NCBI GenBank assembly: GCA_027459725.1
Contig: DAIDHK010000003.1
Coordinates: forward strand, 931 to 64,930
Source: Candidatus Levyibacteriota bacterium
Lineage (GTDB): Bacteria; Patescibacteriota; Microgenomatia; Levybacterales; UBA12049
Direction: 5' to 3'
Length of the DNA: 64,000 nt
The first letter of the stretch is position 1; each line of letters opens with the position of its first letter. The notes beneath the pieces are model-generated. The model saw nothing but the letters and a program-made list of their open reading frames with translations. It was not told where the DNA came from and searched no databases. Below are positions 5,314 to 39,644 of this stretch, piece after piece. The translations under genes and the position numbers were made by a program.

Positions 5314-5578
5314 TACGTAGTCAAAAAAATAAAATAGAATGCTTATGACTGGCTCTATGTTCTTAAAAATGATGGCAAAGAATATTTGATTAAAATTGTT
5401 TGTCAAACCGAAGAGCAATAAGATCAAAGAAAGAACATTTACTAATCCATACAAATTATTCTTAGTTCTCTACTTGTAAAAAACTTTCGGTATGAACTAA
5501 TCCGCATTATAGTCTGGGCTCTGATTCTGGGATCTTGGCTTGACAGTAATACAAAAATACAGCAAACTAGAGTTATCT

Positions 5579-7693
5579 ATGTTTTCTCTTGCCCGTAAAT
5601 TGTTACTAACACTGTCAATAGCTCTTATTGTAATAATTTTTGCGATCAACCCGGCTTTTGCACAAACTACTACATCTACCACGCAAAGTGTAACGCCAAC
5701 AGTTGCAGATTATGCTGAAAATTTAAATGTTCAAAAACTGATGATTAACGTCATGAGTGCCATGAGTTGTCAGGTAGCAGGTATTAATGCAGCCTATCCC
5801 AATCAAGCTTGTTACGGCCAAAAGAGCAACCCCTTAAATGGTCAGGTTTCCCTGCAGAACACAAACAACCTCGGACTCATCGGCCTTGCAGTTCAGGGCA
5901 TCAACCTTACTTTTACTCCTATTGCCTCTCCCAATACCTATTTTCAGGATTTAGCTCAAAATTTCGGTTTTGTGAAACATACTTACGCATCTACCACCAC
6001 ACAATGTGCAAACGGCGGAGTATACGGGCAAGGAGTAGGATTTTGCCAGCTGCATCCACTGATGCAAATTTGGACTGTTGTCCGTAATCTTGCCTATTTA
6101 GGTTTTGTAGTAGTATTCATCTTTATTGGATTCGCCATAATGTTTAGAATAAAAATGAATCCTAATACCGTTGTAAGTATTCAAAGTACAATTCCCAAAG
6201 TCATAATTGCCTTGATTCTAATAACTTTTTCCTATGCCATTTCAGGATTTTTAATTGATATCATGTATGTTTCAATTGGAGTCATCACCCAGCTCGGAGA
6301 ACAAGTAGATCCTATTTCAATTAATAGTAATCATCAAAAGAACCCTGACATGGACAAAATTTTTTCTACTTTACAAGGAGATAATCCAATCAGCTTTGCC
6401 AGTCAAATGGTGGGATTAGGAGGAACAGCCAGTAACACTGCTCACGCTTTAGGAGATGCTGCTGGAGGAATTATAGGATCGTTCGGAGAAGGCGGTACAA
6501 TAATTGCCGCTTTGATTGGCGGCCTGGCGGGATCCAAAGTAGCCTCGGCACTTGGTTCGGGTCTGCAAATTGGAGGAGCAATAGTTGGAACAGCCATTGC
6601 AGCTATCACCGGAAATCCCGAACTCATACCAGCACTTTCTATGGGCGGAGCGAATATAGGTGGAGCTTTGGGACAAGTTATCGGTATCTCAGCTGGTGTT
6701 GGCAGCGCTATAAATAACGCCAGCGGCACTGTTGCCTGGATCGGCTATGTTGCAGCTGTGCTTATTTTATTTGTCGGAATACTAATTTCACTAGCACGGC
6801 TTTGGCTAACTTTGATTATGGCATATATAACTATTTTAGTAGATGTTGTCTTCGCACCGTTTTGGATTTTACTAGCAATTGTACCAAAATCTAAATTCAC
6901 TTTTACTTCCTGGATCAAGGATATGATTGCTAATCTGGCTGTTTTTCCGATGGTTATCGGCATTTTTGTCATAGCAAAGATATTCATCGATGCATTTAGT
7001 ACAGGCGTTGGGAATGGTGAGTTATTTGCTCCACCTCTTGTAGGCTTAGGCTCATTAAATGATGGGGCTAATACCATGCAAGGGATTATTGGCCTTGGTT
7101 TTATATTTATGGCACCTTCCCTGCTTAATATCTCACGCTCAATTTTTGGAGCGCCTAAATCAACTTTAATGTCTAATAGTATACAAAGCTTTATGATAGG
7201 AGCACAATCAGGCAGAAGAATTTGGGGAGTAACTGGCGGTAGGTTAATCGGTGTTGATAAAAACGGAAAGCCTAAACCATTCAGTGCAATGCTTGCGAAT
7301 AATCGCGCTGAAAGGGCCCATCACAAAACTGATGAACTACTTACTCTTCAAAGAGATCTTGATGCAGGCAAACTTACAGGCTTTGATGCAGTACGAGCTA
7401 AAGCCAAACTTCGACTCGCCAATGCGGGAAGAGGTTTCTCTAATCTGGGTCAAAATAGTACAGTAGAATTTAGGGAGAAACTTCGTAGTCGCTTAGACGA
7501 ACTACAAAGATCGGGTAGGTTTGATGGCCCTCAAATGGAAAAGTATATGAAAGACTATGCTGCCCGAGAAGTGGCCAGGTCAACAGGGCGAGCAAAATTA
7601 GCTACTAGTGAAAATCAGGTACTCGAGAAAGTTTTACAGGAATACAATCTAGGTGTTAAGCAACCAAATCCCACTCCCGGTGGCTCGCATTAG
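5579..7693 (+). CDS. VirB6/TrbL-like polytopic membrane protein. Signal peptide, Cys-containing extracytoplasmic N-domain, Gly-rich multi-TM core, about 170-aa charged cytoplasmic C-terminal tail. The ORF opens at 5540 with TTG, but the ATG at 5579 begins a canonical signal peptide.
   Basis: MFSLARKLLLTLSIALIVIIFAINPAFAQ signal peptide. There are at least 6 long hydrophobic segments with GxxxG/glycine-zipper runs. A basic/acidic C-terminus. Its size and topology match the TcpH/PrgH/VirB6 class, and it is in a locus with VirB4. Confidence 0.45.
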   Translation: MFSLARKLLLTLSIALIVIIFAINPAFAQTTTSTTQSVTPTVADYAENLNVQKLMINVMSAMSCQVAGINAAYPNQACYGQKSNPLNGQVSLQNTNNLGLIGLAVQGINLTFTPIASPNTYFQDLAQNFGFVKHTYASTTTQCANGGVYGQGVGFCQLHPLMQIWTVVRNLAYLGFVVVFIFIGFAIMFRIKMNPNTVVSIQSTIPKVIIALILITFSYAISGFLIDIMYVSIGVITQLGEQVDPISINSNHQKNPDMDKIFSTLQGDNPISFASQMVGLGGTASNTAHALGDAAGGIIGSFGEGGTIIAALIGGLAGSKVASALGSGLQIGGAIVGTAIAAITGNPELIPALSMGGANIGGALGQVIGISAGVGSAINNASGTVAWIGYVAAVLILFVGILISLARLWLTLIMAYITILVDVVFAPFWILLAIVPKSKFTFTSWIKDMIANLAVFPMVIGIFVIAKIFIDAFSTGVGNGELFAPPLVGLGSLNDGANTMQGIIGLGFIFMAPSLLNISRSIFGAPKSTLMSNSIQSFMIGAQSGRRIWGVTGGRLIGVDKNGKPKPFSAMLANNRAERAHHKTDELLTLQRDLDAGKLTGFDAVRAKAKLRLANAGRGFSNLGQNSTVEFREKLRSRLDELQRSGRFDGPQMEKYMKDYAAREVARSTGRAKLATSENQVLEKVLQEYNLGVKQPNPTPGGSH

Positions 7694-7761: not shown

Positions 7762-10695
7762 CTAAAGACCCATATCTTTTTTGGCTGCTCCAACTAAAGG
7801 TGAGAGAACTTCTTTAGATACTTCACCCACTTTACCGGGTTTACGCATTTCGCGTACTAAATCAAGCAGGAATAAGTGTGGCTCAGTAATCCTCGCCTTT
7901 CTACGTAACCAACCGATTTCATAACGACTAAAGGCATGTCCCATAAATCGATTATTTTGTAAATTATCAGGATCACGAAATTCTGAATCCGGAACAGATC
8001 TCAAAACTGTAATTACTGAACGATAAAAGCTAGAACCGTAACGAATATCATGTCCATATCTAACACGATGGGCAAATATTTGTCCAGCTACTATGTTAAG
8101 AAAAATACTTTTCACTAAATCAACTTTATTGGTATTAACTTTCTGAGCATCTATAACATGCTGCCCAAAGATGTCTTTTATGGGCATATCGCGCAATTTA
8201 CGGGTAATTGGATGTATTCTCTTTTCTGTCTTCCAGAAGGCAGGAATGTCCAATACTTCTTTTCCAAACATAGCTTCTGCTAAAGGAACGGTGACAAAAT
8301 AAGAACGCTTTTCCATTTTTGGCTCACCGTGTTCCATGACTATATTCCCATCCGCGTCTCTTACGGCAAACTCGCCTTCCTGAATCATTTGATAGTCCTG
8401 AGCAAAGTTAGTACTACCCCAAGTGCTATACATGTTGTAGATTTTCTTTAAAATATCATTCAAAACCTTTTCACCAAAATCTTCTTCTTTAAGAACAAAT
8501 TGTTTATCACGATCATCAAACTTAGTATATTCTTCCCAATGAATTTCCTTACCTGAAGACATAAGATCATGAATGGCAACAGCATTACTAATATGATCTC
8601 TGGTATACTGAATCATTTCATTACGCTTGAAGCTTAATGTTTCAGCATTTTTCATGAAGGCTTGTTGTATAAGTAATTCTTCCTTTTTCTTTTCTTCCTC
8701 ATTTAGTGCCTGCTTTTTCTCAATATCTCTAACTTTTTCTGTCGCTTTATCTGCTTTGTCGCGCAATTCAAAGAAAGTTTCCGCAATACTTTTCCCATTA
8801 GTGGTAGCTCCAGCCCAGAAGAATGGCACAGCGGTCTCGGTAAGAGCATTTAAAGTAGTGGCAGGACCTGACCAACGCATGCGTCCTCTTACATCACGGA
8901 GTCTGCTTCTTAGAGATCTGTGAACTGCTGCTCCACTGAAGTTGCGAGCTTCAATATCAAGCATTGTTATAATGCCTGTTGCTTGAGCAAAGTTCTCTGC
9001 TAATAGATAGGCAAACTCCAAATTATCATTGTCTACTTTTTGCATCTCTGGATCAAGGTATACATCGTACCTTTTAGCCACCATACGACGGATAATATTT
9101 CTAACAGCCTTAATAATAAGTTCATCTTTTTGGGGTAAGTTAAACAGATTAACTACATCAAGTACATGATTTACAGGATCATTTTTTGCTTTTTTCCATT
9201 GTTCATCATTTTGTTCTAAGGCTTTGATCGTCTCATCCGGATCTCTGTGCAAATTTTTTGCCTGCTCTCTTACCTCTGCTTCAACAGTTTTGAAATCCAG
9301 CAATTCACATCCCTCTGGATATAGTTCTTCAAGTGCCCCACGGTTAGCTAGGTTCATGATTGTTTCAACCATTAACAAGAAAGAATAACCAACCTTATTG
9401 TCTGATCTTCTTCTAAGTGCACCGGTATCTTTATCTGGTATCATGTCAGAGGAATAATTCTGAGGTAAAGTAGCCATAAACTCCAGCATACTAGATTCAT
9501 CCCCATAAAACAGATCAGTAAAGCGGTTATCAGCAAAAAGTTGTGTTAACAAATTGGCATACTCTGGTCCACCCTTACCAAATTTTGTCCAAAACGTAAC
9601 GCCCTTGTCACGTGTCCACATAGCAACCAGCATTTCTTTGGCTATATTGTTACCTAATCTAAATAGATAGCCCTTCCTTGATCCTTCACCAAGTTCTTCG
9701 CGGAATAACTTTCCTTGTTTGATAACCATTTCTTGATAAAGATTAATAGTTCTACCACCAACCAGGAAGCTTAAGCGATCAATAAAATTAACTGGATCAC
9801 GCGGAGATTCTCCAGCGTAGAAGTTAATTCTTTCACGGACAAAACGCAATACATTCTCTTCTATTATTTCTATACTCTCTTCTTGAGGCCTTTTGGGTCT
9901 TATCCTACCATCAGGCCCTCTCTCCCAAGCCTTTATTCTTACCAGTGGAAAAGGAATCGTACCTTTTTTAGCTATATCCGGGTTCCTCAATTCACCTTCG
10001 GGAGCTATATTTTCAGCTCCCCATTTACTTTTATCTACACCTGTTGATAAGGCAAAAAACATATCCTGGGCAGTCTCAAAAGATTGGATTTTTTCCTGAG
10101 CTTTTACTTGTGCTTCCGACTGCATCTCCTCCACGTCAGCACGGTCCTTCATTGCTCTATCAATATCCGTTGTTGTGGGAGTGAGAGGAGTCTCTTCCAC
10201 TTGTGCTGTATCAACTTCTCGTGTTGTGGGTGTAGTTTCACCCTGTTGTACTTGTCCTAATCGACTTTTAATATTTTGTAGTGCTCTTTTTGCACGACTC
10301 AGCTTGTCAGCATTTTTTACTCTTCCCGCTCTCGTTTCTGCATTAATACGTGGTTCAACTACCTGCAATAAGTTATCAAGTTCAGATTGTTGAATTGGCT
10401 CTCCTGAACCAACTGACTTAAAACGCAGGTCTAAAACTGATTTTTCAAAATCTGCAGGTACTAAATCGCCCAGTTCATTGATTCCACCCAGTTCCAAAAG
10501 TTGCTTCAGAACCTCATAATCTATATTCGATCCTCCATCTATTGCTGCACGAGGGTTACGTCTTTCGTGCCCACGTGTTCTTTCATTTGTAGGATTACTC
10601 ATATTTTCCTTATCACTTTCAGCATAACCTACTCTGCGAGAAGGTGTCAAACGTGTCATCTCTTTTAAAGGATGGTAAATATATTCCCCCGACAT
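7762..10695 (-). CDS. large hypothetical cytoplasmic protein, 977 aa. No TM segment and no P-loop.
   Basis: Uninterrupted 2.9-kb ORF. Charged, with a disordered Thr/Pro-rich N-terminal segment. No recognisable catalytic motif by eye. Confidence 0.6.
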   Translation of the reverse strand: MSGEYIYHPLKEMTRLTPSRRVGYAESDKENMSNPTNERTRGHERRNPRAAIDGGSNIDYEVLKQLLELGGINELGDLVPADFEKSVLDLRFKSVGSGEPIQQSELDNLLQVVEPRINAETRAGRVKNADKLSRAKRALQNIKSRLGQVQQGETTPTTREVDTAQVEETPLTPTTTDIDRAMKDRADVEEMQSEAQVKAQEKIQSFETAQDMFFALSTGVDKSKWGAENIAPEGELRNPDIAKKGTIPFPLVRIKAWERGPDGRIRPKRPQEESIEIIEENVLRFVRERINFYAGESPRDPVNFIDRLSFLVGGRTINLYQEMVIKQGKLFREELGEGSRKGYLFRLGNNIAKEMLVAMWTRDKGVTFWTKFGKGGPEYANLLTQLFADNRFTDLFYGDESSMLEFMATLPQNYSSDMIPDKDTGALRRRSDNKVGYSFLLMVETIMNLANRGALEELYPEGCELLDFKTVEAEVREQAKNLHRDPDETIKALEQNDEQWKKAKNDPVNHVLDVVNLFNLPQKDELIIKAVRNIIRRMVAKRYDVYLDPEMQKVDNDNLEFAYLLAENFAQATGIITMLDIEARNFSGAAVHRSLRSRLRDVRGRMRWSGPATTLNALTETAVPFFWAGATTNGKSIAETFFELRDKADKATEKVRDIEKKQALNEEEKKKEELLIQQAFMKNAETLSFKRNEMIQYTRDHISNAVAIHDLMSSGKEIHWEEYTKFDDRDKQFVLKEEDFGEKVLNDILKKIYNMYSTWGSTNFAQDYQMIQEGEFAVRDADGNIVMEHGEPKMEKRSYFVTVPLAEAMFGKEVLDIPAFWKTEKRIHPITRKLRDMPIKDIFGQHVIDAQKVNTNKVDLVKSIFLNIVAGQIFAHRVRYGHDIRYGSSFYRSVITVLRSVPDSEFRDPDNLQNNRFMGHAFSRYEIGWLRRKARITEPHLFLLDLVREMRKPGKVGEVSKEVLSPLVGAAKKDMGL

Positions 10696-12217: not shown

Positions 12218-14872
12218 ATGCATTGTTATCCAAGAATATCAAAATTACTGTTTCCATTTCTTGTTTTTTTTATAGTTTTTGTTTCACTGTATAGAATTAA
12301 CTATGCTTTTGCAACGAGTAGCAATACGAGGTCATCAGGTACTTCTTTGGGAAGTGATAGTACAGTTTATACTATAGCTAACGGAGTAACTGTCACACAA
12401 TCGCCTAAAAATGTCTATGAAAATACCTCAAATATAACATTGTTGTTTAATATACCTGCTAGTAGTAATAATAATACCCCATACTATATTTTATTCTGGA
12501 ATCAGGCAAGCAATTGGCCTGACTACAATCATTGTGAGACTATAGGAAGTGAATTTCTTCTGGGAGGATGGGATAATGCTATGGGTATAGGTGGATGGTC
12601 AGGAGGCTCAAATGGAAAATGCACATTGCTTAATCCTAATGATTGGGGCAAAGATACATATACACTAGTACAAGATAAAACAGCAAAAGAGTTGACACCA
12701 TTGGGAAACAAATGGGGATATCAAGTATCAGTAAACACTTTACCTGGGGAAAGTATTAAATATAAAATTTGGCAAGGTGATGTTGAATCAAGTTATCAAG
12801 CATCCCAGATGATTGGTCAAATTAACATAGGACAATGTACTCAATCACAAAATGGCTGTCCTGGAATCGCGGTAGACAGCTACCCGGTTCAGTATGACAC
12901 TAATTTTCCTCTTTACATCGCCAATCCACATGCTGATACAGCCTACATAGTATGGTGGAAAGGATCTAATACAGTAATCTGGTCAGGCTCGTTCACTACT
13001 AACCAAATAAAAAGTGCTTCGAAATTCAACGTTATTGGCAGTAATAACTCCACCGTGTCAGTTCCCGCAATTAAGCTGCAAAACAATGGCCAGGACGTGA
13101 CACAAATAGTTTCCAGCAGCGAAGATTCGAATCTTCCAATTGATAGCAGCAATGATTTTAAGTACAAAACATTATGTCTATATCAAGCGACGCCTCAAAA
13201 TTTAGCCTCAATAATTTCAAATTTCTCGCTAAAATGTGACTCAACCGCCAAATCAACCCGAGTCTATTTCGGTATTAATGGGCAACCACTCGGGTCTGGA
13301 ACGTTACTGTCGAATGGTAACATCGGTGCTCCATCTGCTTCTGAGAACTTTAACCTGCAGTCTGTTAACACCGGATTCTTTCTACCCTGTATTTCCCCCA
13401 CGCCCACCCCAGTTAATCAAGCATATAATAGCAAGAACTCTTCAAATACATCATTTGCTGATGCTTGGAAAAATATATTGGCAGACGCCGCTTTCTTCTT
13501 TACCGGTCAATCTGCCATGCCAAGTCCAACTTCTTCCAACATAAATCAACAACTCGCCTACTCACAAATTACCCCTGCCCAAACAACTCCAGAATTTTTA
13601 ATGTCCACAACTAATCAGTCAACCACTCCCATTAGCGTCGGCCCCGCTTCTGTATCCCCAGGGGATACTTTCGTTGTTGGTTTAACATCTCCGATAAGCA
13701 ATAATTACACTCTATCTATACACGATGGTAGCAACAATAGCTTACTAAATAGCAACATTACTCAATATTGCCAATCAGGAAAAGCATGCGACTTTATTAT
13801 AAATAGCAGTAAGTATTCTAATTACAAGTTCACATTCCCTACAAATCCGCAAAACTTTCAGATCACTATCGCCGATAATAATAAAACCGTAGGTATGACA
13901 GATGTGGCATTCACCCAATCAGCATCTTCCAATGTTAATGACAGTCAAACTCAGAACACAACCACAACAAAAAATATACAAAACGATGGAACTATTACTA
14001 TACAGAATCTTGGTAACAAGCAGAATACTGGCTCTGCTAATATTTATTCCGATGACGCTTTATCGGTTTATATTTCATATAACAGCAAAACTTCTATTAA
14101 AAACTGCTCTGTAGCTATCGCGGTAAATCAATCAGCTATTACCGCACTATCGCCACAAACCTGTAACAATAGTACTTCACCGAATTCTAACACAAACTTA
14201 TTGCCTTTAGATCTATCAAAATATAGTCAGTTTGCATCTATTACTACCCCTACTGACCTCAGTCTAAGTGCGGTTGCCTATGACACTAATGGTAACATAC
14301 TTTCAATAAAGAAAGACTTTACAATCTATCCGGTTTGTGGTACTCAAGAATGCAATGGATCATGTATAAATGTGCCTGGACAAAGCCAGATTTATTGTGC
14401 AGAACCAACTAGTACGCCTACTCTTAGCCCAACACCAAACGCTCAACAGTCTATTTGCAATTCATGTTTGGCGAGTGGTACAAGCGATTGTAGTAGCGCC
14501 TGCACTGCTGCTACAACAGTTTCTGATACTCCAAGCGTAGAGACTCCAACATCATACCCTACTCCTGTAAATATAGGCTTCTCCCCCTGTTATCAGGTAG
14601 ATACCGCCATTGGAATGATAAGCACAGATCCTATTTCCTTTGTTAATAATATGTTTGATATTTTATTAAGCCTAAGCGGCGGCATTGCTCTTCTGATTAT
14701 CATCTACAACGGTTACCGCTTGTTAATCTCACGGGGCAATCCCGATGCCATCAAAAAAGCCCGTGAGGGTATTACCTCTGGTATTATTGGCATCATCTTT
14801 GCTATTCTATCTATTGCCATTCTACAAACTATTGGCGTTGATATATTACATTTGCCAGGTTTTGGCAATTAA
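12218..14872 (+). CDS. secreted Ser/Thr/Asn-rich surface protein (about 885 aa) with a C-terminal VirB2/TrbC-type pilin-like hydrophobic hairpin. Candidate pilus-tip adhesin or minor pilin fusion. The ORF opens at 12182 with TTG; the ATG at 12218 is preferred.
   Basis: Signal peptide MHCYPRISKLLFPFLVFFIVFVSLYRINYAFA. Long low-complexity Cys-containing ectodomain. The last about 90 aa 'GGIALLIIIYNGYRLLISRGNPDAIKKAREGITSGIIGIIFAILSIAILQTIGV' have the same helix-loop(K/R-rich)-helix pattern as the small pilin paralogs downstream. Confidence 0.5.
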   Translation: MHCYPRISKLLFPFLVFFIVFVSLYRINYAFATSSNTRSSGTSLGSDSTVYTIANGVTVTQSPKNVYENTSNITLLFNIPASSNNNTPYYILFWNQASNWPDYNHCETIGSEFLLGGWDNAMGIGGWSGGSNGKCTLLNPNDWGKDTYTLVQDKTAKELTPLGNKWGYQVSVNTLPGESIKYKIWQGDVESSYQASQMIGQINIGQCTQSQNGCPGIAVDSYPVQYDTNFPLYIANPHADTAYIVWWKGSNTVIWSGSFTTNQIKSASKFNVIGSNNSTVSVPAIKLQNNGQDVTQIVSSSEDSNLPIDSSNDFKYKTLCLYQATPQNLASIISNFSLKCDSTAKSTRVYFGINGQPLGSGTLLSNGNIGAPSASENFNLQSVNTGFFLPCISPTPTPVNQAYNSKNSSNTSFADAWKNILADAAFFFTGQSAMPSPTSSNINQQLAYSQITPAQTTPEFLMSTTNQSTTPISVGPASVSPGDTFVVGLTSPISNNYTLSIHDGSNNSLLNSNITQYCQSGKACDFIINSSKYSNYKFTFPTNPQNFQITIADNNKTVGMTDVAFTQSASSNVNDSQTQNTTTTKNIQNDGTITIQNLGNKQNTGSANIYSDDALSVYISYNSKTSIKNCSVAIAVNQSAITALSPQTCNNSTSPNSNTNLLPLDLSKYSQFASITTPTDLSLSAVAYDTNGNILSIKKDFTIYPVCGTQECNGSCINVPGQSQIYCAEPTSTPTLSPTPNAQQSICNSCLASGTSDCSSACTAATTVSDTPSVETPTSYPTPVNIGFSPCYQVDTAIGMISTDPISFVNNMFDILLSLSGGIALLIIIYNGYRLLISRGNPDAIKKAREGITSGIIGIIFAILSIAILQTIGVDILHLPGFGN

Positions 14873-14874
14873 CT

Positions 14875-15240
14875 ATGTTAAAAGAACATTTATTAGCCTT
14901 ATCTATTCCTGGGGAGAATGGGAGTAGCACTAATATCGTAATGCCTAACGCAGTAAACTGCGGCAGTAATGGCTGTTTGAACACAGTCATGCAATACATC
15001 ATACAATGGCTTTTCGTAGGAGCCATCATTCTTTGTCTAGCTTACCTAATCTGGGGCGGGATTGATTGGACAATGTCCTATGGAGACAAAACGAAAGTGC
15101 AAAAAGCCCGTTTAAAACTTGTGTATGCCATTATTGGTTTATTTATAGTTTTCCTCGCTTTCTTCTTTGTTAATTTGGGAGGACACTTACTTGGTCTACC
15201 TCTTACTAATGTCAGTACAACTATCAATACAACTCCTTAA
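14875..15240 (+). CDS. VirB2/TrbC-like pilin-family protein, paralog 1 (121 aa)
   Basis: N-terminal leader with a Cys pair, then 'WLFVGAIILCLAYLIWGGIDWTMSYGDKTKVQKARLKLVYAIIGLFIVFLAFFFV' (two TM helices separated by a short basic loop). It starts 2 bp after the fusion gene. Confidence 0.5.
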   Translation: MLKEHLLALSIPGENGSSTNIVMPNAVNCGSNGCLNTVMQYIIQWLFVGAIILCLAYLIWGGIDWTMSYGDKTKVQKARLKLVYAIIGLFIVFLAFFFVNLGGHLLGLPLTNVSTTINTTP

Positions 15241-15262
15241 CTTTCAACTATAATAGAACAGC

Positions 15263-16495
15263 ATGAAGGCTTCCCTCTTTTATTTTTTAAGTGCCTTTTT
15301 ACTTTTACTTTTAAGTTTGGTCGCAGTTATTGGCCCGCATACAGAACTTATAGACGTAACAGAATATCACTGTTATGCCAGTATCTTCTGGACTGGGCAT
15401 TTACAAATCAACAAAACTGAACAACGATACTGTTTATCTGAGATTAAATCAAACCAAATACATAAATATAAATTACCCCAGGAGTATCCTCTACTTAGCC
15501 TGTTTATCTTTTCTCTTCCCCTACTTTCTCCTTTCAGCTACAGCCTAGGTTTTAGACTATTAATGCTGGTATTTTTACTAACTATCTGGATGTATTTTTT
15601 CAAAGTTAAAAAATTTACTTCAGGTATAATATTTCTATTATTAATCACGCTTGGACTTAGCTCAGTTACCTTTAACCGTTATGACTTAAGTGCTACCACT
15701 TTAACCTTTTTTGCCATAATACTGGCTTATAATAAAAAGTTTCTTCCCAGTTACTTATTATTAGCACTAGCAACGTTTCTCAAAATTTATCCCCTTTTTC
15801 TTATACCGTTGGTCTTCCTTTTTGAATTACAAACCCATAAGCATAAACTACTCAATCTAAAAAATTACTACTTCGTTTCACTTGGAGTCATTGCATTAGC
15901 CTTACTGCTAATACTTTCACTCAAGCTTGATTTTGTTCAAACGCTTGCACCCCTACAGTATCAAGCAGCCAGGCCACTACAAATAGAATCTATCCCCGCT
16001 TCCATCTTTTTGCTAACTAGCTTCGGAAAAGTATGTTTTATTCAATCTTTTGGTTCACTTAATATTCTTCATTCTATTAACCATCAATGTTCTCCCAACT
16101 TAGTCAGTCAAACTCTGGAGACTATCTTTAGTATCCTAATGCTATTAAGCCTTATAGTCGTCTATCTAAACTTCTTCAAAGGTAGAATTAAATTCACAGG
16201 CGCCGTGGTCTTATTAATCTTAAGTCTTCTTATCTTTAACAAAGTCTTGAGTCCGCAATATTTTATTTGGCTGGCTCCTTTTTTAGCTCTAAAATATAAA
16301 AAAATCTCATTAAATACACTTATCTGGTTTATACTCTTTGCGCTAACTTATTTAATTTACCCAATAATGTATTCCCAAACTAGTATGAGTAATTTACTGG
16401 GAGTAATTTCCGTACGTAACATTCTTTTAGTTTTTCTATATATCTATACATGGAAAGAAGTATTACATAAATTCAAGAAACAGTCTGTAAAATAG
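15263..16495 (+). CDS. polytopic membrane protein, possibly a GT-C-fold glycosyltransferase (410 aa)
   Basis: About 11 TM helices. An acidic 'DVTEY' motif lies in the first predicted external loop, reminiscent of the GT-C D-E-x-x-Y motif. It sits between the pilin genes. Confidence 0.4.
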   Translation: MKASLFYFLSAFLLLLLSLVAVIGPHTELIDVTEYHCYASIFWTGHLQINKTEQRYCLSEIKSNQIHKYKLPQEYPLLSLFIFSLPLLSPFSYSLGFRLLMLVFLLTIWMYFFKVKKFTSGIIFLLLITLGLSSVTFNRYDLSATTLTFFAIILAYNKKFLPSYLLLALATFLKIYPLFLIPLVFLFELQTHKHKLLNLKNYYFVSLGVIALALLLILSLKLDFVQTLAPLQYQAARPLQIESIPASIFLLTSFGKVCFIQSFGSLNILHSINHQCSPNLVSQTLETIFSILMLLSLIVVYLNFFKGRIKFTGAVVLLILSLLIFNKVLSPQYFIWLAPFLALKYKKISLNTLIWFILFALTYLIYPIMYSQTSMSNLLGVISVRNILLVFLYIYTWKEVLHKFKKQSVK

Positions 16496-16499
16496 AACT

Positions 16500-18041
16500 A
16501 TGAACAAATCTATTAAGCAATGTTTATCATTTATAAAAAAGCATATCTATCTCATCTTGTTAATTAGCTTTTTCTCACTTTATACTCTGGAGGGCATTTA
16601 TTTGCTCGATCCAGATTTCGGTTGGCACTTACGTTTTGGTGAAATAGTATTACAAACCCACAGTGTCCCCTTAAAAGATCTATTTTCATATACCATGCCA
16701 AGCTATGACTTCATTAATCATGAATGGTTTTCAGACGTTATTATCGCCGTTATTTACCATTTAACCGGACTTGTAGGAGTAGCTATATTTTTTGGACTAT
16801 TCGTCACTATTGGACTTGGAGTAGTAGTTAACATTGCCCAAAAGAAAGATAAGATTGGTTTCTGGCTGTCACTTTTAACTATGGTCGCTGTAACAATGGT
16901 GCAATTTGCCGGCATTCGCCCACAAGCTTTAAGCTGGACATTCTTTGTTTTAGTCTGGTATTTGTTGGATATCTCAAAAAATAAATGGCGCTTTATAATC
17001 TTGCCTATCATTTTCCTCATCTGGGCTAATCTGCACGCCGCCTTTGCTTTAGGGTTATTTCTATTTTTTGTTGCTGTCATCAATTCTTTGCTTAAAAAAG
17101 ATAGAAGCAGTATTTATCTGTTAATCTCCTTCATCATATCGACCGGGGCTACCTTGATTAACCCTTATGGATTTAAATTATGGCAAGAAGTCATTCTCAC
17201 CTCAGCTTCCCCGCAAATCTCCACTGTTGAAGAATGGACGCCAAGTTTCACCCACATTATCTTTCCCATGTGGCTATTTATTGATTTCTCATTAATTCTC
17301 CTCTGGTTCAACAGATCTAACGTAGCTAAGAAAAATATTTTTTTACTAACTGTTATTGGCATACTTTTTTTAGTAGGCATACGACAGGCTCCGCTATTTA
17401 TGTTGTTTTTATTACCTTTAGCAATTGAGGCAGTGAATGATTTCATTGACCAGGCAAAAAAATATCAGTATGCCATTAAACGCCTAAAAGTTGCATCACT
17501 AATAGTAACTATCATCACTGTTGTTTTCTGTATTATTACCTTATGGCCTCTGGAATCCAGCTTATGGAAAAGCGGATTTAACATCCAAAAAAGTATTTCA
17601 TTAACTTACCCAAGCACTTCTGTCAAATATTTAAAAACTCACCCATTTAAAGGCAATTATTATTCAATATATAACTGGGGTGGTTATTTGATCTGGCAAC
17701 TCCCTAACAAAAAAGACTTCATAGATGGTCGTATGCCTACCTGGATTAATCCCAATGCACCCAAAAATGAAAGCAAAAATGCATTGCAGGATTTTCTCAA
17801 GATAGACAATCCAAAAATACTGGACAAAACAATTCATAAGTATCATATAACCACCCTAATAATCGCACCATTGAAACAATCTGTTCCTCAATGCTGGTGG
17901 CTGCAAAACTGGTGTAATCAAGTCATCAAGCAAAGAAATAAGCAAAATCAGCCACTTGAAACTTATCTCCATATTCATCACTGGCATGAGCTAATACACG
18001 ACAAAGTCTCAGTTGTTTATCAGTTATCTGTTAGTCAGTAA
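16500..18041 (+). CDS. polytopic membrane protein, possibly a GT-C-fold glycosyltransferase (PMT/ArnT/YfhO-like), 513 aa
   Basis: About 11-12 TM helices plus a C-terminal soluble domain. An acidic loop 'LDPDFGWHLRFGE' follows TM1. It starts 4 bp after the previous gene. Confidence 0.4.
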   Translation: MNKSIKQCLSFIKKHIYLILLISFFSLYTLEGIYLLDPDFGWHLRFGEIVLQTHSVPLKDLFSYTMPSYDFINHEWFSDVIIAVIYHLTGLVGVAIFFGLFVTIGLGVVVNIAQKKDKIGFWLSLLTMVAVTMVQFAGIRPQALSWTFFVLVWYLLDISKNKWRFIILPIIFLIWANLHAAFALGLFLFFVAVINSLLKKDRSSIYLLISFIISTGATLINPYGFKLWQEVILTSASPQISTVEEWTPSFTHIIFPMWLFIDFSLILLWFNRSNVAKKNIFLLTVIGILFLVGIRQAPLFMLFLLPLAIEAVNDFIDQAKKYQYAIKRLKVASLIVTIITVVFCIITLWPLESSLWKSGFNIQKSISLTYPSTSVKYLKTHPFKGNYYSIYNWGGYLIWQLPNKKDFIDGRMPTWINPNAPKNESKNALQDFLKIDNPKILDKTIHKYHITTLIIAPLKQSVPQCWWLQNWCNQVIKQRNKQNQPLETYLHIHHWHELIHDKVSVVYQLSVSQ

Positions 18042-18097
18042 GTTATACATTGACCTCTTGACAAGTCTGTGTAATTTTAACTAGAGTATAAATAGAT

Positions 18098-18532
18098 ATG
18101 AAATTTGACTTGAAAAAATCATCGCTTTTTGCCTCTACTTTCGTGACACTAGGTGCGCTTACTACTGTTTCTTCATTTGCTGCAGGTACTGATAATGCTA
18201 TCAGCATTTGTCCTGCCGGTTCAGCTTTCTCAGGAGTCTGTAACTTTAACACTAGTACACTCTTAGGTAGTGTTATCAATGTCGTCTTCGTTATCGCTAT
18301 CTTAATCGCCCTCTTCTTCCTGATCTATGGCGGTATCCGTTGGATTATCTCCCAGGGTAATAAGGAAAAGGTTAATGGTGCTCGTGATATGTTAATCGCT
18401 GCTTTAGTAGGTTTGATTGTTGTCTTCCTCTCCTACTTCCTACTCGGTCTGGTCATACAGTTGTTATTTGGTCAGTCAACACAAAATCTGTTAAATTCAG
18501 TTACTACTAACGGTATCTTTAATACGAAATAA
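18098..18532 (+). CDS. VirB2/TrbC-like pilin-family protein, paralog 2 (144 aa)
   Basis: Signal peptide ending '...SSFAAG'. Cys pair 'CPAGSAFSGVC'. Hydrophobic hairpin 'VINVVFVIAILIALFFLIYGGIRWIISQGNKEKVNGARDMLIAALVGLIVVFLSYFLLGLVIQLLF'. Confidence 0.6.
   Translation: MKFDLKKSSLFASTFVTLGALTTVSSFAAGTDNAISICPAGSAFSGVCNFNTSTLLGSVINVVFVIAILIALFFLIYGGIRWIISQGNKEKVNGARDMLIAALVGLIVVFLSYFLLGLVIQLLFGQSTQNLLNSVTTNGIFNTK
18206..18474 (+). repeat. copy A of a 269-bp near-identical segment (2 mismatches) shared by the tandem pilin genes
   Basis: Direct comparison of 18206..18474 with 18739..19007. They differ only at A/G 18366 vs 18899 and A/G 18466 vs 18999. Confidence 0.85.
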
Positions 18533-18636
18533 ATAGTTCTTAATGCTCTCCTCCTTTTAGTCTCATTTCCTAATTTCTGTTTTTAGAGTCAACCATTGAC
18601 AAATCATATTGGCTGCGTTTAAAGTATTAATATACC

Positions 18637-19206
18637 ATGAAAATAAGTATTAAAAGATTTGCCACCGGTTTAATCAGCATTAGTAGTTTAGTTGCCTTTT
18701 CAGCTACTCCAGCATTTGCAGGCGGTAATGTTGTTAGTATTTGTCCTGCCGGTTCAGCTTTCTCAGGAGTCTGTAACTTTAACACTAGTACACTCTTAGG
18801 TAGTGTTATCAATGTCGTCTTCGTTATCGCTATCTTAATCGCCCTCTTCTTCCTGATCTATGGCGGTATCCGTTGGATTATCTCCCAGGGTAATAAGGAG
18901 AAGGTTAATGGTGCTCGTGATATGTTAATCGCTGCTTTAGTAGGTTTGATTGTTGTCTTCCTCTCCTACTTCCTACTCGGTCTGGTCATACAGTTGTTGT
19001 TTGGTCAAACTACTCAGAACTTACTTAACTCTGTTACAAGTAATGGAATATTTAATAGCGGAGTTACTAATTCTCAGTCTCTTCCTTCTTGTTCATCCTA
19101 TTGTCCTAACACAAGTACATGTCTGGCAAATAATGTAAATGCTAGTGCTTATCAAGGGTGTATAACAAACTGCGAAACTAACCACGGTGGAGGTCAATGT
19201 AATTAA
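18637..19206 (+). CDS. VirB2/TrbC-like pilin-family protein, paralog 3 (189 aa), with a divergent N-terminus and an extra Cys-rich C-terminal tail
   Basis: The core is identical to paralog 2. The C-terminal extension 'PSCSSYCPNTSTCLANNVNASAYQGCITNCETNHGGGQCN' contains 7 cysteines. Confidence 0.6.
   Translation: MKISIKRFATGLISISSLVAFSATPAFAGGNVVSICPAGSAFSGVCNFNTSTLLGSVINVVFVIAILIALFFLIYGGIRWIISQGNKEKVNGARDMLIAALVGLIVVFLSYFLLGLVIQLLFGQTTQNLLNSVTSNGIFNSGVTNSQSLPSCSSYCPNTSTCLANNVNASAYQGCITNCETNHGGGQCN
18739..19007 (+). repeat. copy B of the 269-bp near-identical pilin core segment
   Basis: See copy A. The mirrored spurious antisense ORFs in the track (18043..18279 and 18627..18812, both starting MITLPKSVLVLKLQTPEKAEPAGQ) also reveal the duplication. 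Confidence 0.85.
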
Positions 19207-19253
19207 TTGACTAGTTTATTGTTTCTAACAAATACTTCTGCTAGATTATCTAT

Positions 19254-19610
19254 ATGGACTGGAATAATTGTCTGCAGAATGTAACAGATTCTTCAAATAA
19301 AGTGGTTGGCCAAGCTGCCACATTAAACTGTGTACCCGTACTCTTCTCTAACTTAGTCAATGCTGCGTTTGTCTTTGCTGGTAGTGTTGCAGTCATCTTT
19401 ATTATTTGGTCAGGAATTCAATATATAATGTCAGGTGGGGACCCTAAAAAGGCCGAGGGCGCGAAGAAAACATTAACCTGGTCTATCATAGGACTTTTAC
19501 TCATTGTCTTCTCTGTGGCGATTATAAACATCCTAGCAACCATTACAGGCGCTCATTGCATCACTATGTTTGGATTTAACAACTGTCAGACCAATATCGC
19601 AGGCAATTAG
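19254..19610 (+). CDS. VirB2/TrbC-like pilin-family protein, paralog 4 (118 aa)
   Basis: 'LVNAAFVFAGSVAVIFIIWSGIQYIMSGGDPKKAEGAKKTLTWSIIGLLLIVFSVAIINILATI' shows the same helix-basic loop-helix pattern. There are Cys residues in the leader and the tail. Confidence 0.5.
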   Translation: MDWNNCLQNVTDSSNKVVGQAATLNCVPVLFSNLVNAAFVFAGSVAVIFIIWSGIQYIMSGGDPKKAEGAKKTLTWSIIGLLLIVFSVAIINILATITGAHCITMFGFNNCQTNIAGN

Positions 19611-26940: not shown

Positions 26941-29091
26941 ATGGCTTTATTTGGTAAAAAGAAAAATCAAACTAATCAAACACCAGCAGCAGCTGCTCAA
27001 GCAGCTGGTAATAGAGCCGTGCAGCAGTTGCAAAAAGGTATGGTGTCTTTGGTAGACATTATAGCCCCTTCTTCGATCGAAGTTGATTTTAAATACATTC
27101 GAATTGGTGAAACCTACTACACCACTCTATTTGTGGTTGGGTATCCCCGTTTCGTATCGACCAACTGGTTACAGCCGTTGGTAGACTTTGACCATACACT
27201 GGATATTTCGATGTTTGCCTATCCGACTTCGGGAGCCGATGTACTAGGAGACTTGAAGCGTAAGATTGCTGAAATGGAAGCCACTATTTCTTCTGATATT
27301 GAAAGAGGTAAACCAGCTGATCCAACCGTACAAGCGGCACTGGAAGATGCATTGGCTTTACAAGAAGAATTAGCGAAAGGTATTGAAAGATTTTTTCAGT
27401 TTAGTTTTTATATCACCATTTCAGCAGAGAGCCTACAAGATCTCCAGGATACAGAGAAAAGATTAAAAACCACTCTAGCCTCAGTATTACTCAGTGCCAA
27501 ATCGGCAACTTTGCAGATGGAAGACGGCTTCAAAACCACTCTACCAATTGCCCAAGATCGCCTAGCTATAACTCGCAACATGGACACCACCTCTCTGGCC
27601 TCAACGTTTCCTTTCACATCGGCCGTATTAACTCAAAATAATGGTGTTTTATATGGACTAAACCGTCAAAATGGCTCTTTAATTATTTTTGACCGTTTTT
27701 CCCTAGAAAATGCCAACGAAGTAGTACTAGGAAAATCTGGATCAGGAAAATCCTATACCATTAAACTGGAGATCATGCGCCAATTTATGCTTGGCGCGGA
27801 AGTTATTGTTATTGACCCTGAAGGAGAATACGAAACATTAACACAGGCCATGGGAGGAGAAGTAGTCAGCTTTTCTGCCAATGACCCAATCAAGATTAAT
27901 CCTTTTGATCTATCAGAATTATATGAGGAAGGAGAGAATGAGTTGGGCTTAAAAATTCTTTCCTTACATGGTCTGCTAAAAATTATCATGGGTAATATTG
28001 ACGCCGAACACGAAGCGATTCTGGATAAAGCCCTGGTGGAAACTTATCGGCAAAAAGGCATCACACCCGATCCCTCCACTCAAAAAAAAGACCCACCTTT
28101 AATGGAGGACCTATACAAGGTTTTACTTGGCTACGAAAATGCTGCAGCACGTGAACTCGCCTATCGGTTAGAAAAGTTTATCAAAGGCTCAGCAGCGGGT
28201 ATTTTTAATCAAAAATCCAATTTCGACCTAAAGAATCCTTTAACTGTTTTTAATATACAACAGCTAGAAGAAGATCTTCGACCGATTGCAATGCACATCA
28301 TCTTAGATTTTGTTTGGACAAAAGTGAAAAAGACCTTGAAAAAACGAGTATTAGTACTTGATGAAGCTTGGTATATGATGAAATATCAGGATTCTGCTTC
28401 GTTTGTCTACTCAATAGCTAAGCGTGCAAGAAAGTATTATTTGGGTATGACTACTGCCACTCAGGATGTAGAGGATTTTCTTTCCACCGATTATGGAAAA
28501 GCAGTTTTAACCAACTCATCTATCCAAATTTTACTTAAACAAGGCACTGCTGAGGTTGATATGGTGTCAGATACGTTTTACCTAACTGAGGGGGAGAAAG
28601 AACTGCTTGTCTCAGCCGATATAGGGGAAGGGTTGTTTTTTGCCGGTCAAAATCATGTGGCCATCAAAATCATCGCAGCTCCTTACGAGAACGACATGAT
28701 TACATCCAATCCGGCAGAACTTCTTAAACAACAGGAATCAGTAACAGAACATCCAATAATAGAAGAAACACCAGTCGCACAACCCGAAACGACAAGTAGT
28801 AGCTATGCAAAAAAGACAGATGATTTAATAGGTTCACTAGACGCACGTGCGAAACAAATATCTAATCAGTTTGCGCAACAAGCCTCTAGTCCTTTTAGCC
28901 CGGCTACTCCTACTCCTACTCCTACTCCTACTCCTACTCCTACTCCTACTCCACCAACCCCTACACAAGCAGTACAGCAACCTACTGTAACAAACACTTT
29001 ACAGTCTAACAATAACCAGTCTTTCCAACCGCCAATTCCAACGGCAATTCCTCCTCAAGCAGTACCAACTGAGCCGTCAAAACCATTTTAA
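26941..29091 (+). CDS. VirB4/TraC/PrgJ-family type IV secretion ATPase (716 aa) with a C-terminal Pro-Thr repeat tail
   Basis: Walker A 'VLGKSGSGKSY' and Walker B 'VLVLDEAWYMM'. An N-terminal 'IRIGETYYTTLFVVGYPRFVSTNWLQPL' VirB4 N-domain pattern. A C-terminal '(TP)n' low-complexity tail. Confidence 0.85.
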   Translation: MALFGKKKNQTNQTPAAAAQAAGNRAVQQLQKGMVSLVDIIAPSSIEVDFKYIRIGETYYTTLFVVGYPRFVSTNWLQPLVDFDHTLDISMFAYPTSGADVLGDLKRKIAEMEATISSDIERGKPADPTVQAALEDALALQEELAKGIERFFQFSFYITISAESLQDLQDTEKRLKTTLASVLLSAKSATLQMEDGFKTTLPIAQDRLAITRNMDTTSLASTFPFTSAVLTQNNGVLYGLNRQNGSLIIFDRFSLENANEVVLGKSGSGKSYTIKLEIMRQFMLGAEVIVIDPEGEYETLTQAMGGEVVSFSANDPIKINPFDLSELYEEGENELGLKILSLHGLLKIIMGNIDAEHEAILDKALVETYRQKGITPDPSTQKKDPPLMEDLYKVLLGYENAAARELAYRLEKFIKGSAAGIFNQKSNFDLKNPLTVFNIQQLEEDLRPIAMHIILDFVWTKVKKTLKKRVLVLDEAWYMMKYQDSASFVYSIAKRARKYYLGMTTATQDVEDFLSTDYGKAVLTNSSIQILLKQGTAEVDMVSDTFYLTEGEKELLVSADIGEGLFFAGQNHVAIKIIAAPYENDMITSNPAELLKQQESVTEHPIIEETPVAQPETTSSSYAKKTDDLIGSLDARAKQISNQFAQQASSPFSPATPTPTPTPTPTPTPTPPTPTQAVQQPTVTNTLQSNNNQSFQPPIPTAIPPQAVPTEPSKPF
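28906..28953 (+). repeat. hexanucleotide microsatellite (ACTCCT)x8, in frame inside the VirB4 C-terminus (encodes (TP)8)
   Basis: Seen directly in the sequence. The same ACTCCT unit occurs x3 at 25818..25835 in the PrgI-like gene. Confidence 0.8.
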
Positions 29092-29130: not shown

Positions 29131-32568
<3,438 letters not shown>

Positions 32569-33765: not shown

Positions 33766-34626
33766 TTGAAGTATACAAATATGCGTCTTCTTCTTTTTTT
33801 TATTCTTGCTGCTTTGACATTTACTCTTTATACCTACCCAGTTCTTGCACAGGACGCCACAAGCAATTGTGTGATAACAGATATTGGAAATAGCAACTCT
33901 AGTTCTATTCCGGCTAACTGCCAGAATACAGGCAATCAAAGTTCTTCTGGGAATGGTCAAGTTGGACCATCTGTAAATACCGGAAATGCAATAGTTGATT
34001 TAGCCGGGGATCTAATAAATGCAGCCCAAGTTGATTGTCATGCAAATACTGGAGCGGAATTTTCTGCCACTGCGAGCGAACAAACAGATAAATCTGGAGT
34101 TATAAGAGATGACAATCCATCATGTCTTAACACCGATGTGACTGCTATTCTTTCTTCAAAAGGATTAGGTCAGAATGCTGCCTCAACAATTAATCAAATA
34201 GCATTTTCAATAACACAAGGGGCAAACGAAACAGACATTTTGGGCCAAGTACATAAATATTTTCAATGTGTTGGTTTTGCCCAGACTGTCCTACAAGCAC
34301 TTTATACCAATGTAACATCAGGTATTACAGTAGGCAGTACCCACTTCCCTCCTGGATTCAGCGACATCGGAGTTTCGTATGTTAATGGGCAAGCAAGTCC
34401 AATGCCCCAACCGGGAGATATTGCTGAATTAGATAATTTTGGCCATGTTGCAATTGTTAGCTCTGTACGCAATAATGGAGATGGAACATATTATTTCACA
34501 GTCATGGAGGCAAATTATTGTTTTTACGGATGGTTGAATAATAATGAAACTACTTCTTGTAGAACAGTAGGAAAATATATTCCGAGTGATGCTCCTGGAA
34601 TTGAAGCATGGGTAAGAAAAGAATAA
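33766..34626 (+). CDS. secreted CHAP-domain peptidoglycan hydrolase (286 aa)
   Basis: Signal peptide 'MRLLLFFILAALTFTLYTYPVLAQD'. CHAP Cys/His motifs 'HKYFQCVGFAQTV' ... 'GDIAELDNFGHVAIVSSV' ... 'TVMEANY'. Confidence 0.55.
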   Translation: MKYTNMRLLLFFILAALTFTLYTYPVLAQDATSNCVITDIGNSNSSSIPANCQNTGNQSSSGNGQVGPSVNTGNAIVDLAGDLINAAQVDCHANTGAEFSATASEQTDKSGVIRDDNPSCLNTDVTAILSSKGLGQNAASTINQIAFSITQGANETDILGQVHKYFQCVGFAQTVLQALYTNVTSGITVGSTHFPPGFSDIGVSYVNGQASPMPQPGDIAELDNFGHVAIVSSVRNNGDGTYYFTVMEANYCFYGWLNNNETTSCRTVGKYIPSDAPGIEAWVRKE

Positions 34627-35338: not shown

Positions 35339-36445
35339 TTACTCTTGCACTTTAATCGGCATGATCAAATGTAGATAAGAGGCATCTTCAGCAGTTTTAA
35401 ATACCCCGGGATTTAGGGGCCCTGTCATTTCAAAATTAATATTTTCAGACGGCAAGTTACTTAGTGCATCAAGCAGATAGCGTGAATTAAATGCAATCTC
35501 ATTTTCTTCACCTTTAATTTTGCTATCTACTTCTACTATATTCTCCCCTGCTGAAACTATAATCTTATCTTTTTGCAAAGAAAACTTAATCACATTAGCA
35601 ATATCGCGGGCAAAAATCGAGCATATCCGAACAGCTTTCAACATTTCTTCTCTGTCAAATGAAGCAGTTACGGAGAAGTCAACCGGAATAATTTTTTCAT
35701 AATTTGGAAATTCAGCTTCAATTAGACGGCTAATAAGAATTATTGAACCTTGTTCAAAAATGATTTGATTACTATTAATAGACACATAAAGCTCAATTTT
35801 TTCTGTCTCCTCTTTCATGGCTAAAGCTTCTTTGAAAGCCCTGGCCGGTACGATCATACTCGACTTTCCTTCCAGTAGGTTAACCTTATCGTCTTTCCCT
35901 GCGGTAAAGTGTTTAAGAGATAAACGATAGCCATCAGTAGCGACGAGTAAAAATCCATTTTCCTCCTGTTCTACATAAACTCCAGATAAAGATGGACGGG
36001 CGATATCAATACTTGCAGAGAAAACCACGGCATTTAGTTCTTTTTTCATTTCTTCCGCATTTATGCTGGCCAACAGTACTCCTCTTTCTTCAAACAAGCG
36101 GGGAAACTCATTGGCAGACATGGTGGCAAAAATGCTTTTGGTTTTATTGGTCTTTACAACACAATTACTTCCGTCAGACTCAATAGTTAGACTATCTGCT
36201 GATAGAGAATTTACCAACTCGGAGAAGGTGCGAGCTGGAACAGTTATTTTTCCCGGTTGTTTTACTTCTGCTGATAATTCTACTTGAATTCCTATTTCCA
36301 GATCTGTACTACTTAAGTTTAATTTACTCTCTTTCGCTTCAAGCAAGAGGTTTAAAAGTATTGGAAGCTGTTGCTTATTAGAAACTGCGTGGTTGATAAA
36401 TCCAAGTTTATTTTTTAACTCTTCTGCCTTAAGTGTTACTTGCAT
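35339..36445 (-). CDS. dnaN: DNA polymerase III beta sliding clamp
   Basis: 368 aa with a three-domain beta-clamp pattern. Located immediately downstream of dnaA. Confidence 0.85.
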   Translation of the reverse strand: MQVTLKAEELKNKLGFINHAVSNKQQLPILLNLLLEAKESKLNLSSTDLEIGIQVELSAEVKQPGKITVPARTFSELVNSLSADSLTIESDGSNCVVKTNKTKSIFATMSANEFPRLFEERGVLLASINAEEMKKELNAVVFSASIDIARPSLSGVYVEQEENGFLLVATDGYRLSLKHFTAGKDDKVNLLEGKSSMIVPARAFKEALAMKEETEKIELYVSINSNQIIFEQGSIILISRLIEAEFPNYEKIIPVDFSVTASFDREEMLKAVRICSIFARDIANVIKFSLQKDKIIVSAGENIVEVDSKIKGEENEIAFNSRYLLDALSNLPSENINFEMTGPLNPGVFKTAEDASYLHLIMPIKVQE

Positions 36446-39601: not shown

Positions 39602-39608
39602 CCATGAA

Positions 39609-39637: not shown

Positions 39638-39644
39638 TAAGCTT

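Follow-up and report, generated by a model that had tools for sequence, protein, structure and literature searches.

A modular long-form VirB2-like pilin in the type IV secretion pilin array of a Levyibacteria-like Patescibacterium

Introduction

Can a pilin of the VirB2 type form the end of a large secreted protein and, if so, what would such a protein do? The question is raised by a 64,000-nucleotide stretch of DNA from Candidatus Levyibacteriota bacterium (contig DAIDHK010000003.1, positions 931 to 64,930; hereafter the window). Its chromosomal, monoderm-type type IV secretion system (T4SS) cluster holds, near dnaA, an array of pilin genes. The first of them, called class A here, encodes an 884-residue protein with a large ectodomain and a C-terminal helical hairpin. 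Clusters of this kind, placed near oriC and carrying arrays of VirB2-like pilins, are known from Patescibacteria (PMC12102498); in Southlakia, both the secretion system and its array of pilins are essential (PMC10633639).

A first-pass annotation of the window proposed that a pilin domain is fused to an adhesin-like region in the class A protein. We find that the feature is a modular long-form VirB2-like pilin, real and well supported, whose function we infer.

Results

A pilin hairpin at the end of an 884-residue secreted protein

The class A gene and its parts are the following.

12218-14872, + strand: class A long-form pilin gene, 884 amino acids (aa), with signal peptide, ectodomain and C-terminal PF18895 pilin domain
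12218-12316, + strand: predicted Sec signal peptide, residues 1-33 (...YAFA/TSS), from hydropathy, with predicted cleavage; the YAFA motif is also present in the ortholog P0002
12389-13336, + strand: ectodomain module, residues 58-373, equivalent to all of the ectodomain in typical long-form pilins of 360-450 aa and containing the conserved Cys pair C320/C340
13337-14335, + strand: lineage-specific extra ectodomain, residues 374-706, with no internal repeats, present only in P0002 and partly in locus L002
14336-14590, + strand: Cys-rich knot and Pro/Thr-rich linker, residues 707-791, with 9 Cys; the fastest-evolving segment
14591-14869, + strand: pilin domain, residues 792-884, consisting of a TAxGxIxTDP neck, a helix (805-837), the basic loop SRGNPDAIKKAR, a helix (842-871) and an IGVDILHLPGF tail

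The open reading frame (ORF) runs on the + strand from the ATG at 12218 to 14872, stop codon included. Two TTG codons, at 12182 and 12200, are possible alternative starts; the start of P0002 is in register with the ATG. Hydropathy reveals three hydrophobic segments, at residues 3-33 (ending in YAFA/T), 810-837 and 850-880, of which the first looks like a Sec signal peptide. The length first given for this giant secreted protein is corrected from 885 to 884 residues.

About 770 residues separate the signal peptide from the hairpin. This ectodomain is rich in Ser, Thr and Asn, as first reported (14.0%, 11.0% and 10.8% of residues 34-800), and contains Cys: there are 20 beyond the signal peptide, along with 21 N-x-S/T sequons. 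The N-terminus is of the ordinary Sec type, ending in AFA, with no class III signal peptide and no N-terminal alpha-1 pilin module. At the other end, the chain finishes with ...GVDILHLPGFGN straight after helix 2, with no LPXTG-plus-hydrophobic sortase signal; a sortase substrate was considered and rejected on that ground. No VirB5-type match to the protein was found in Pfam or NCBIfam, no PrgB-type or adhesin domain in Pfam, and no internal repeat by self-comparison.

The C-terminal hairpin is confirmed by sequence as a true member of the PF18895 (T4SS_pilin) family, the same family as the four small paralogs of the array. Residues 808-870 match the Pfam profile with 32.9 bits (E 6.7e-8, profile positions 8-69 of 71; gathering cutoff 26.6 bits), and the small ORFs at 14875, 18098, 18637 and 19254 are all above the cutoff too. 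In composition-adjusted BLASTP, the last 102 residues retrieve the 118-aa pilin at E 2e-11, the 144-aa pilin at 1e-9 and the 121-aa pilin at 5e-5. The hairpin is 20-26% identical to those of the small pilins, and the columns invariant in all five proteins (I..G.....S.G.......A......G) include polar positions of the loop (S-x-G ... A). A pilin hidden Markov model (HMM), run on all listed window ORFs of at least 60 aa, matches only these five; several polytopic membrane proteins are also encoded in the window, and none of them is matched. The first-pass claim that the protein ends in the same hairpin as its four small neighbours, to be checked by comparing their C-termini, is thus borne out by a similarity that is specific.

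AlphaFold2 (AF2), supplied with an alignment of 120 sequences, predicts confident helices at residues 805-837 and 842-871; the blocks of the hairpin mostly exceed a predicted local distance difference test (pLDDT) value of 87, and hydropathy agrees with this helix-loop-helix. The full-length model, made from a two-sequence alignment, has a mean pLDDT of 33.7 and is unusable. The hairpin has acidic flanks and a basic loop, and its nearest non-ortholog relatives include stand-alone pilins with about 60% identity.

PF04956, the TrbC/VirB2 family, does not match the 884-aa protein, and the small paralogs score 11-21 bits against its cutoff of 27.9. It is matched at E<1e-3 by 5 of 120 long forms; several family members match the TrbC/VirB2 and CagC profiles below cutoff. 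The size expected of a VirB2/TrbC pro-pilin, about 100-120 aa with the hairpin only, is far exceeded by 884 aa with some 770 residues ahead of the hairpin.

Long-form pilins as a widespread class

We built a profile from the window protein and one full-length ortholog and searched it against 1.84 billion representative proteins. It has 8,334 relatives at E up to 0.001, P0002 included, and 3,693 at 1e-10 or better. P0002 is the only full-length match; a word-indexed search with the whole protein returns the identical entry and one ortholog only. The best-matching stretch of the best 149 non-ortholog matches is the C-terminal ~100-260 residues. Among these proteins, 127 are longer than 250 aa (median 374, maximum 745). 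A hydrophobic segment lies near the N-terminus of 117, and in nearly all of them the pilin domain stands at the very C-terminus. PF18895 is matched in every one of 120 relatives scanned, with other Pfam domains almost absent (fn3 occurs in three). Where the profile is dominated by small pilins, the top 120 matches all measure 97-226 aa.

Scanning one genome per GTDB species gave 206 confirmed loci, and those with names come mostly from Ca. Levyibacteriota, Microgenomates or 'Patescibacteria group' metagenome-assembled genomes (MAGs). ORFs were called in 80 of the loci, in locus L001 and in the window, and searched with the pilin HMM, which found matches in 81 of the 82 sequences; each pilin was assigned to the class of the window paralog that it most resembles. 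A-B-C-D is the commonest order, seen exactly in 32 of the 81 loci, with many close variants (ACCD, ABCCCD, ABCCD and others). The median class A protein has 375 aa (10th-90th percentile 184-570), and that of the window, with 884 aa, is the longest found; the medians of classes B, C and D are 110, 138 and 107 aa, respectively. Class A also has strongly conserved motifs of its own, TAxGxIxTDPxxFV ahead of helix 1 and a terminal IGVDILxIPGF.

Judged from these sequences, the long pilin is a widespread class and not a one-off, with the window protein as its largest member seen. In metagenomic Patescibacteria, especially Levyibacteria, the first array gene normally encodes a long N-terminal region with the pilin domain at the C-terminus. 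The architecture had been called non-standard, which is correct with respect to characterised T4SSs and does not extend to this position of the array; nor is it a unique fusion. Full-text literature searches found no description of a long-form pilin class, which is apparently undescribed.

In the class A relatives of loci L008, L031, L035, L038 and L041, the hairpin lies mid-protein and is followed by an added C-terminal extension. It follows that the hairpin tolerates extracellular additions at both ends.

Many array-bearing MAGs among L005-L081 are titled 'uncultured Gammaproteobacteria', and a few Nitrospirota, Actinomycetota or Sulfotelmatobacter. These are probably mislabelled or contaminated bins; we treat such titles as unreliable and do not use them as evidence of occurrence outside Patescibacteria.

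A constrained hairpin and a fast-changing ectodomain

The two halves of the class A protein evolve very differently. Compared with L001, the pilin domain has a nonsynonymous divergence (dN) of 0.067 and a synonymous divergence (dS) of about 1.7, whereas dN is 0.29-0.36 in the ectodomain and 0.52 in the linker (residues 701-785). Half of the pilin-domain codons that encode identical amino acids differ synonymously, which places the hairpin under strong purifying selection and speaks against its recent exchange. Compared with L002, from a Ca. Levyibacteriota genome, the last 72 residues are identical at 71 positions, while the two ectodomains differ in length and, essentially, in their whole sequence. 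In the same comparison, the B, C and D pilins are 81% identical each, the regulator 70% and the two membrane proteins of the array 61% and 74%.

The contrast extends across genomes, where the N-terminal regions of 145 representatives sort into 57 BLAST groups with no relation to one another. Mean pairwise identity of the hairpin core is 59% in class A (a figure inflated by the selection of loci through class A peptide patterns), 43% in B, 55% in C and 50% in D. Altogether, a highly constrained hairpin handle carries an exchangeable, fast-evolving head.

The size of the window protein is owed to additions to a common plan. In typical long forms, the module is followed by a Pro-rich linker and directly by the pilin domain; in the window protein, the module leads to a short PTPTP stretch, then to about 330 extra residues, and then to the Cys knot with its Pro/Thr linker. 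Residues ~58-373 are homologous, at 21-28% identity, to the ectodomain of typical long forms (360-450 aa) over its full extent, with motifs common to both. In L002, only residues 386-535 of the extra ectodomain have a counterpart, at 31% identity. The module of the window occurs in only 5 ORFs among the 82 sequences searched, all five with a pilin domain, and a homolog search with the ectodomain-module alignment returned a single protein.

Composition and order of the pilin array

Five PF18895 genes lie within 12218-19610, in the order A-B-[two membrane proteins]-C-C-D. The genes that follow class A are listed below.

14875-15240, + strand: class B small pilin, 121 aa, separated by 2 bp from the class A gene upstream
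15263-16495, + strand: polytopic membrane protein, 410 aa, inside the array, conserved in L002
16500-18041, + strand: polytopic membrane protein, 513 aa, inside the array, conserved in L002
18098-18532, + strand: class C small pilin, copy 1, 144 aa
18637-19206, + strand: class C small pilin, copy 2, 189 aa, which duplicates copy 1 in tandem and has a C-terminal extension rich in Cys
19254-19610, + strand: class D small pilin, 118 aa

The class A stop ends at 14872 and the class B ATG is at 14875, which leaves the 2-bp gap given in the first-pass annotation. L002 is fully syntenic with the window, both membrane proteins and the genes on either side of the array being in place as well; L001 has the regulator, A and B as in the window, and then its contig ends.

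The class C duplication spans 300 nt at 95% identity (18193-18492 versus 18726-19025, at a spacing of 533 nt), and the C-terminal extension of copy 2 has 6 Cys. Class C is also the paralog that is amplified in the arrays of the 81 loci. The best sigma-70-like matches of the region precede each C copy: TTGACA-18-TAGAGT at 18058-18087 and TTGACA-18-TAAAGT at 18596-18625. Amplification and promoter-like matches would fit, weakly, a role of class C as the major subunit.

The 410- and 513-aa membrane proteins have several hydrophobic segments each and gave no match in Pfam, NCBIfam or PDB sequence searches. They could be candidates for pilin modification or assembly; one idea would be that, as glycosyltransferases, they modify the Ser/Thr/Asn-rich ectodomain.

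The T4SS cluster and its surroundings

Around the array, we identified the following genes.

5540-7693, + strand: candidate VirB6/TrbL-like membrane protein, a weak match below the Pfam cutoff
7762-10695, - strand: large ORF, 977 aa, with no significant Pfam match and a syntenic counterpart in L002
10779-12122, - strand: regulator, 447 aa, with a C-terminal OmpR-type winged-helix domain, divergent from the class A gene and syntenic in L001 and L002
20001-23222, - strand: large ORF, 1073 aa, with no significant Pfam match and a syntenic counterpart in L002
24670-26241, + strand: PrgI (VirB3-like) family protein
26941-29091, + strand: VirB4-type T4SS ATPase (TraG P-loop / DUF87 / AAA_10)
29131-32568, + strand: large ORF, 1145 aa, with no significant Pfam match
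33766-34626, + strand: CHAP-domain protein, candidate VirB1-like cell-wall hydrolase
35339-36445, - strand: dnaN
36688-38109, - strand: dnaA
38413-39489, - strand: rve-family transposase
40343-41188: YidC

The cumulative GC skew has its minimum at about 36-42 kb; together with dnaA and dnaN, it indicates that the T4SS cluster abuts the likely replication origin. A Wzy_C protein is also found in the dnaN/dnaA region (35339-42960).

No receiver domain was recognised in the 447-aa winged-helix regulator, which may control the pilin array. The PrgI protein is unusually long (523 aa), with a CarboxypepD_reg-like domain at residues 429-483. The L002 counterparts of the 977- and 1073-aa ORFs have 997 and 981 aa. 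Neither a VirB5- nor a PrgB-type adhesin was detected among the cluster genes scanned.

Comparison with known systems

The closest known systems, to which the window array belongs, are the VirB2-like arrays of Patescibacteria (Wang et al. 2023, PMC10633639; Quinonero-Coronel et al. 2025, PMC12102498). Like them, it consists of tandem PF18895 genes near virB4, in a monoderm (MPF-FATA-like) cluster close to dnaA, and non-pilin genes may interrupt such arrays. Paralog identity is low in both: a mean of ~25% and a maximum of 54% are reported there, and the hairpins of the window share 20-26%, except for the class C duplicate. The difference lies in the first member: the published arrays are described as small pilins, whereas that of the window, with 884 aa, is one of a separate, conserved class of long forms not singled out there. 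In Southlakia, SEML1_0014-0019 are six small pilins, none above ~190 aa, which were called pilins by structure-based annotation; for two of them, there was a match to Pfam TrbC/VirB2 as well (PMC10633639).

With the VirB2/TrbC/TraA pilins (PF04956; T-, F-, RP4- and R388-pili), the class A protein shares a predicted signal peptide, two hydrophobic helices and a short basic loop, as well as being encoded with VirB3, VirB4 and VirB6 homologues, although the VirB6-like match is weak here. Contrary to it, those pilins have 70-120 aa and no ectodomain, and the organism of the window is a monoderm. VirB5 and CagL resemble the class A protein in proposed role only, that of a minor, tip-located and host-binding component of the T4SS pilus; they are soluble proteins in their own right, have a fold of their own and lack a pilin hairpin. 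PrgB adhesins are, like it, large secreted proteins encoded with a monoderm T4SS, yet they rely on an LPXTG cell-wall anchor in place of a pilin hairpin. No PrgB-type adhesin has been reported in Patescibacteria, and VirB5 is found in 1 of 3,035 genomes, with a rare Gram-negative-type T4SS (PMC12102498).

The fusion of a pilin module to an adhesion module recalls, in concept only, the modular type IV pilins PilB and PilC of Streptococcus sanguinis (PMC8179133). These belong to an unrelated superfamily with a class III signal peptide, and their pilin module is N-terminal, not C-terminal as here (PMC8179133). Pilin-like proteins of Mycoplasma integrative and conjugative elements (NF045849, Mbov_0395; NF045848, MMCAP2_0566, 322 aa) also place hairpins in a monoderm MPF-FATA-type system. 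In the longer MMCAP2_0566 model, the N-terminal part aligns with the hairpin of the 189-aa window paralog; the extension is C-terminal there, and these are conjugative elements, not a chromosomal system. The matches from the small pilins (14875-19610) and the class A pilin domain (14591-14869) lie far below the NCBIfam cutoffs (18.9-31.9 bits versus 40 for NF045849, 21.8 versus 90 for NF045848); they hint that PF18895-type pilins may occur in the MPF-FATA systems of Tenericutes, a group from which the survey deemed pilins absent (PMC12102498).

Discussion

We propose that the class A protein is the long, modular member of a set of four VirB2-like pilin paralogs, belonging to the chromosomal monoderm-type T4SS of a Levyibacteria-like Patescibacterium, and that it acts as a minor or tip pilin displaying a variable adhesion or host-recognition domain. 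We hold this reading with middling confidence. The protein would be exported by Sec, its signal peptide removed, and its Cys-rich ectodomain folded outside the cell. VirB2/TraA pro-pilins have both termini outside the membrane and the loop inside. The class A hairpin would be inserted in the same way, with the basic loop SRGNPDAIKKAR in the cytoplasm, a topology consistent with its acidic flanks and basic loop; display of the ectodomain outside the cell is supported by this fit.

The T4SS machinery (VirB4, PrgI/VirB3 and the VirB6-like protein) would then take up the class A hairpin together with the B, C and D pilins. By rough geometry, the surface of a VirB2-type pilus offers only a few nm2 per subunit. 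An 85-kDa head of ~770 residues, carried ahead of helix 1, would leave room for the subunit only at wide intervals or at the filament end. In the model reviewed in PMC12857230, VirB2-type pili grow from the base, so that a nucleating subunit would end up at the tip. There, the lineage-specific ectodomain would be displayed to recognise or bind the surface of the host cell, taking the role of VirB5/CagL in diderm systems and of PrgB-type adhesins in Gram-positive ones. A bolder form of the proposal makes class A the missing VirB5/PrgB equivalent, a subunit that would both start and cap a heteromeric pilus of the VirB2 type, not known so far from a monoderm, with rapidly swapped ectodomains setting the host range; we put this forward only tentatively, as it is rather unlikely.

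Several points weigh against a tip pilin. The only array studied experimentally, that of Southlakia, is composed of small pilins only (PMC10633639), and no T4SS of Patescibacteria is known to make a pilus (PMC12857230). That PF18895 proteins polymerise is itself something we infer, and calling class A an adhesin draws on nothing other than composition, location and evolutionary pattern. A PDB sequence-profile search with the pilin alignment returned no match. Foldseek of the hairpin model against PDB gave none at E<=1e-3, only generic helical hairpins; the closest pilin, that of the Aeropyrum CedA1 pilus (8dfu), ranked ninth with TM 0.52/0.61 and a non-significant E of 2.3. With hhalign, six plasmid VirB2/TrbC sequences align in register, but at a probability of 1.5% and E 0.035.

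The class A protein might instead reside in the membrane as a surface protein that is never polymerised, its hairpin being only an anchor or a dock for the T4SS channel and its ectodomain acting at the surface in adhesion, in envelope structure or as a cap or stalk of the channel. This is possible, if somewhat unlikely. The hairpin is a competent two-transmembrane anchor, an N-terminal load of 85 kDa is unprecedented for a polymerising VirB2-type subunit, extensions occur on both sides of the hairpin in L008, L031, L035 and L041, and the absence of any pilus shown in the phylum (PMC12857230) counts here too. Yet a plain anchor needs neither identity at 71 of 72 positions, where the other pilins have 81%, nor a dN as low as 0.067, and it has no use for class-specific neck and tail motifs, a fixed first position and tight linkage to the B gene. 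Conservation, motifs and gene position together point to specific contacts with other pilins or with the machinery, which does not by itself prove polymerisation. Alternatively, the PF18895 proteins of this system might build a membrane or envelope assembly other than a pilus, a conduit or a ring for example, with class A as its extracellular extension. Gram-positive-type T4SSs are normally without pili, and the homology to VirB2 is remote, with PF04956 below cutoff and the hhalign probability of 1.5%; the topology and basic loop match the VirB2 pattern nonetheless, several members show sub-threshold TrbC/VirB2 and CagC similarity, and those of Southlakia are annotated as pilins by structure, two of six with TrbC/VirB2 matches (PMC10633639). 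We regard such an assembly as improbable.

Two further explanations concern the feature itself. Hydrophobic helices can produce spurious profile matches, and the hairpin could then be a generic double-transmembrane anchor unrelated to pilins, the outcome that the first-pass annotation had named as fatal to its proposal. It is refuted, to the point of being very improbable, by the PF18895 score above a curated cutoff, the BLASTP E of 2e-11, the conserved polar residues of the loop and the specificity of the pilin HMM for the five pilins among the window's membrane proteins; the stand-alone pilins ~60% identical to the hairpin argue in the same direction. An artefact of assembly or annotation, through frameshift-merged genes or a chimeric contig, has next to no likelihood, and nothing was found in its favour: the same unbroken architecture and conserved synteny are found in three independent assemblies (the window, L001 and L002), the architecture recurs in well over a hundred other proteins examined, and a fusion artefact was rejected for these reasons.

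Patescibacteria depend on host cells, and no adhesin has been identified for their T4SS. A conserved pilin class whose large extracellular domain changes fast offers an obvious candidate for the element of host contact. If the proposal of a long-form tip or minor pilin is true, class A would be the first modular VirB2-type pilin; to our knowledge, the modular pilin-adhesin design has so far been documented only for type IV pili. Rows of the published survey list PF18895 matches as 'VirB2' and have no length column (PMC12102498); counting every such match as a small 'VirB2' hides a distinct component in annotation. Should class A further prove to be the VirB5/PrgB equivalent, these bacteria would possess a modular, exchangeable host-range cassette mounted on a conserved pilin handle.

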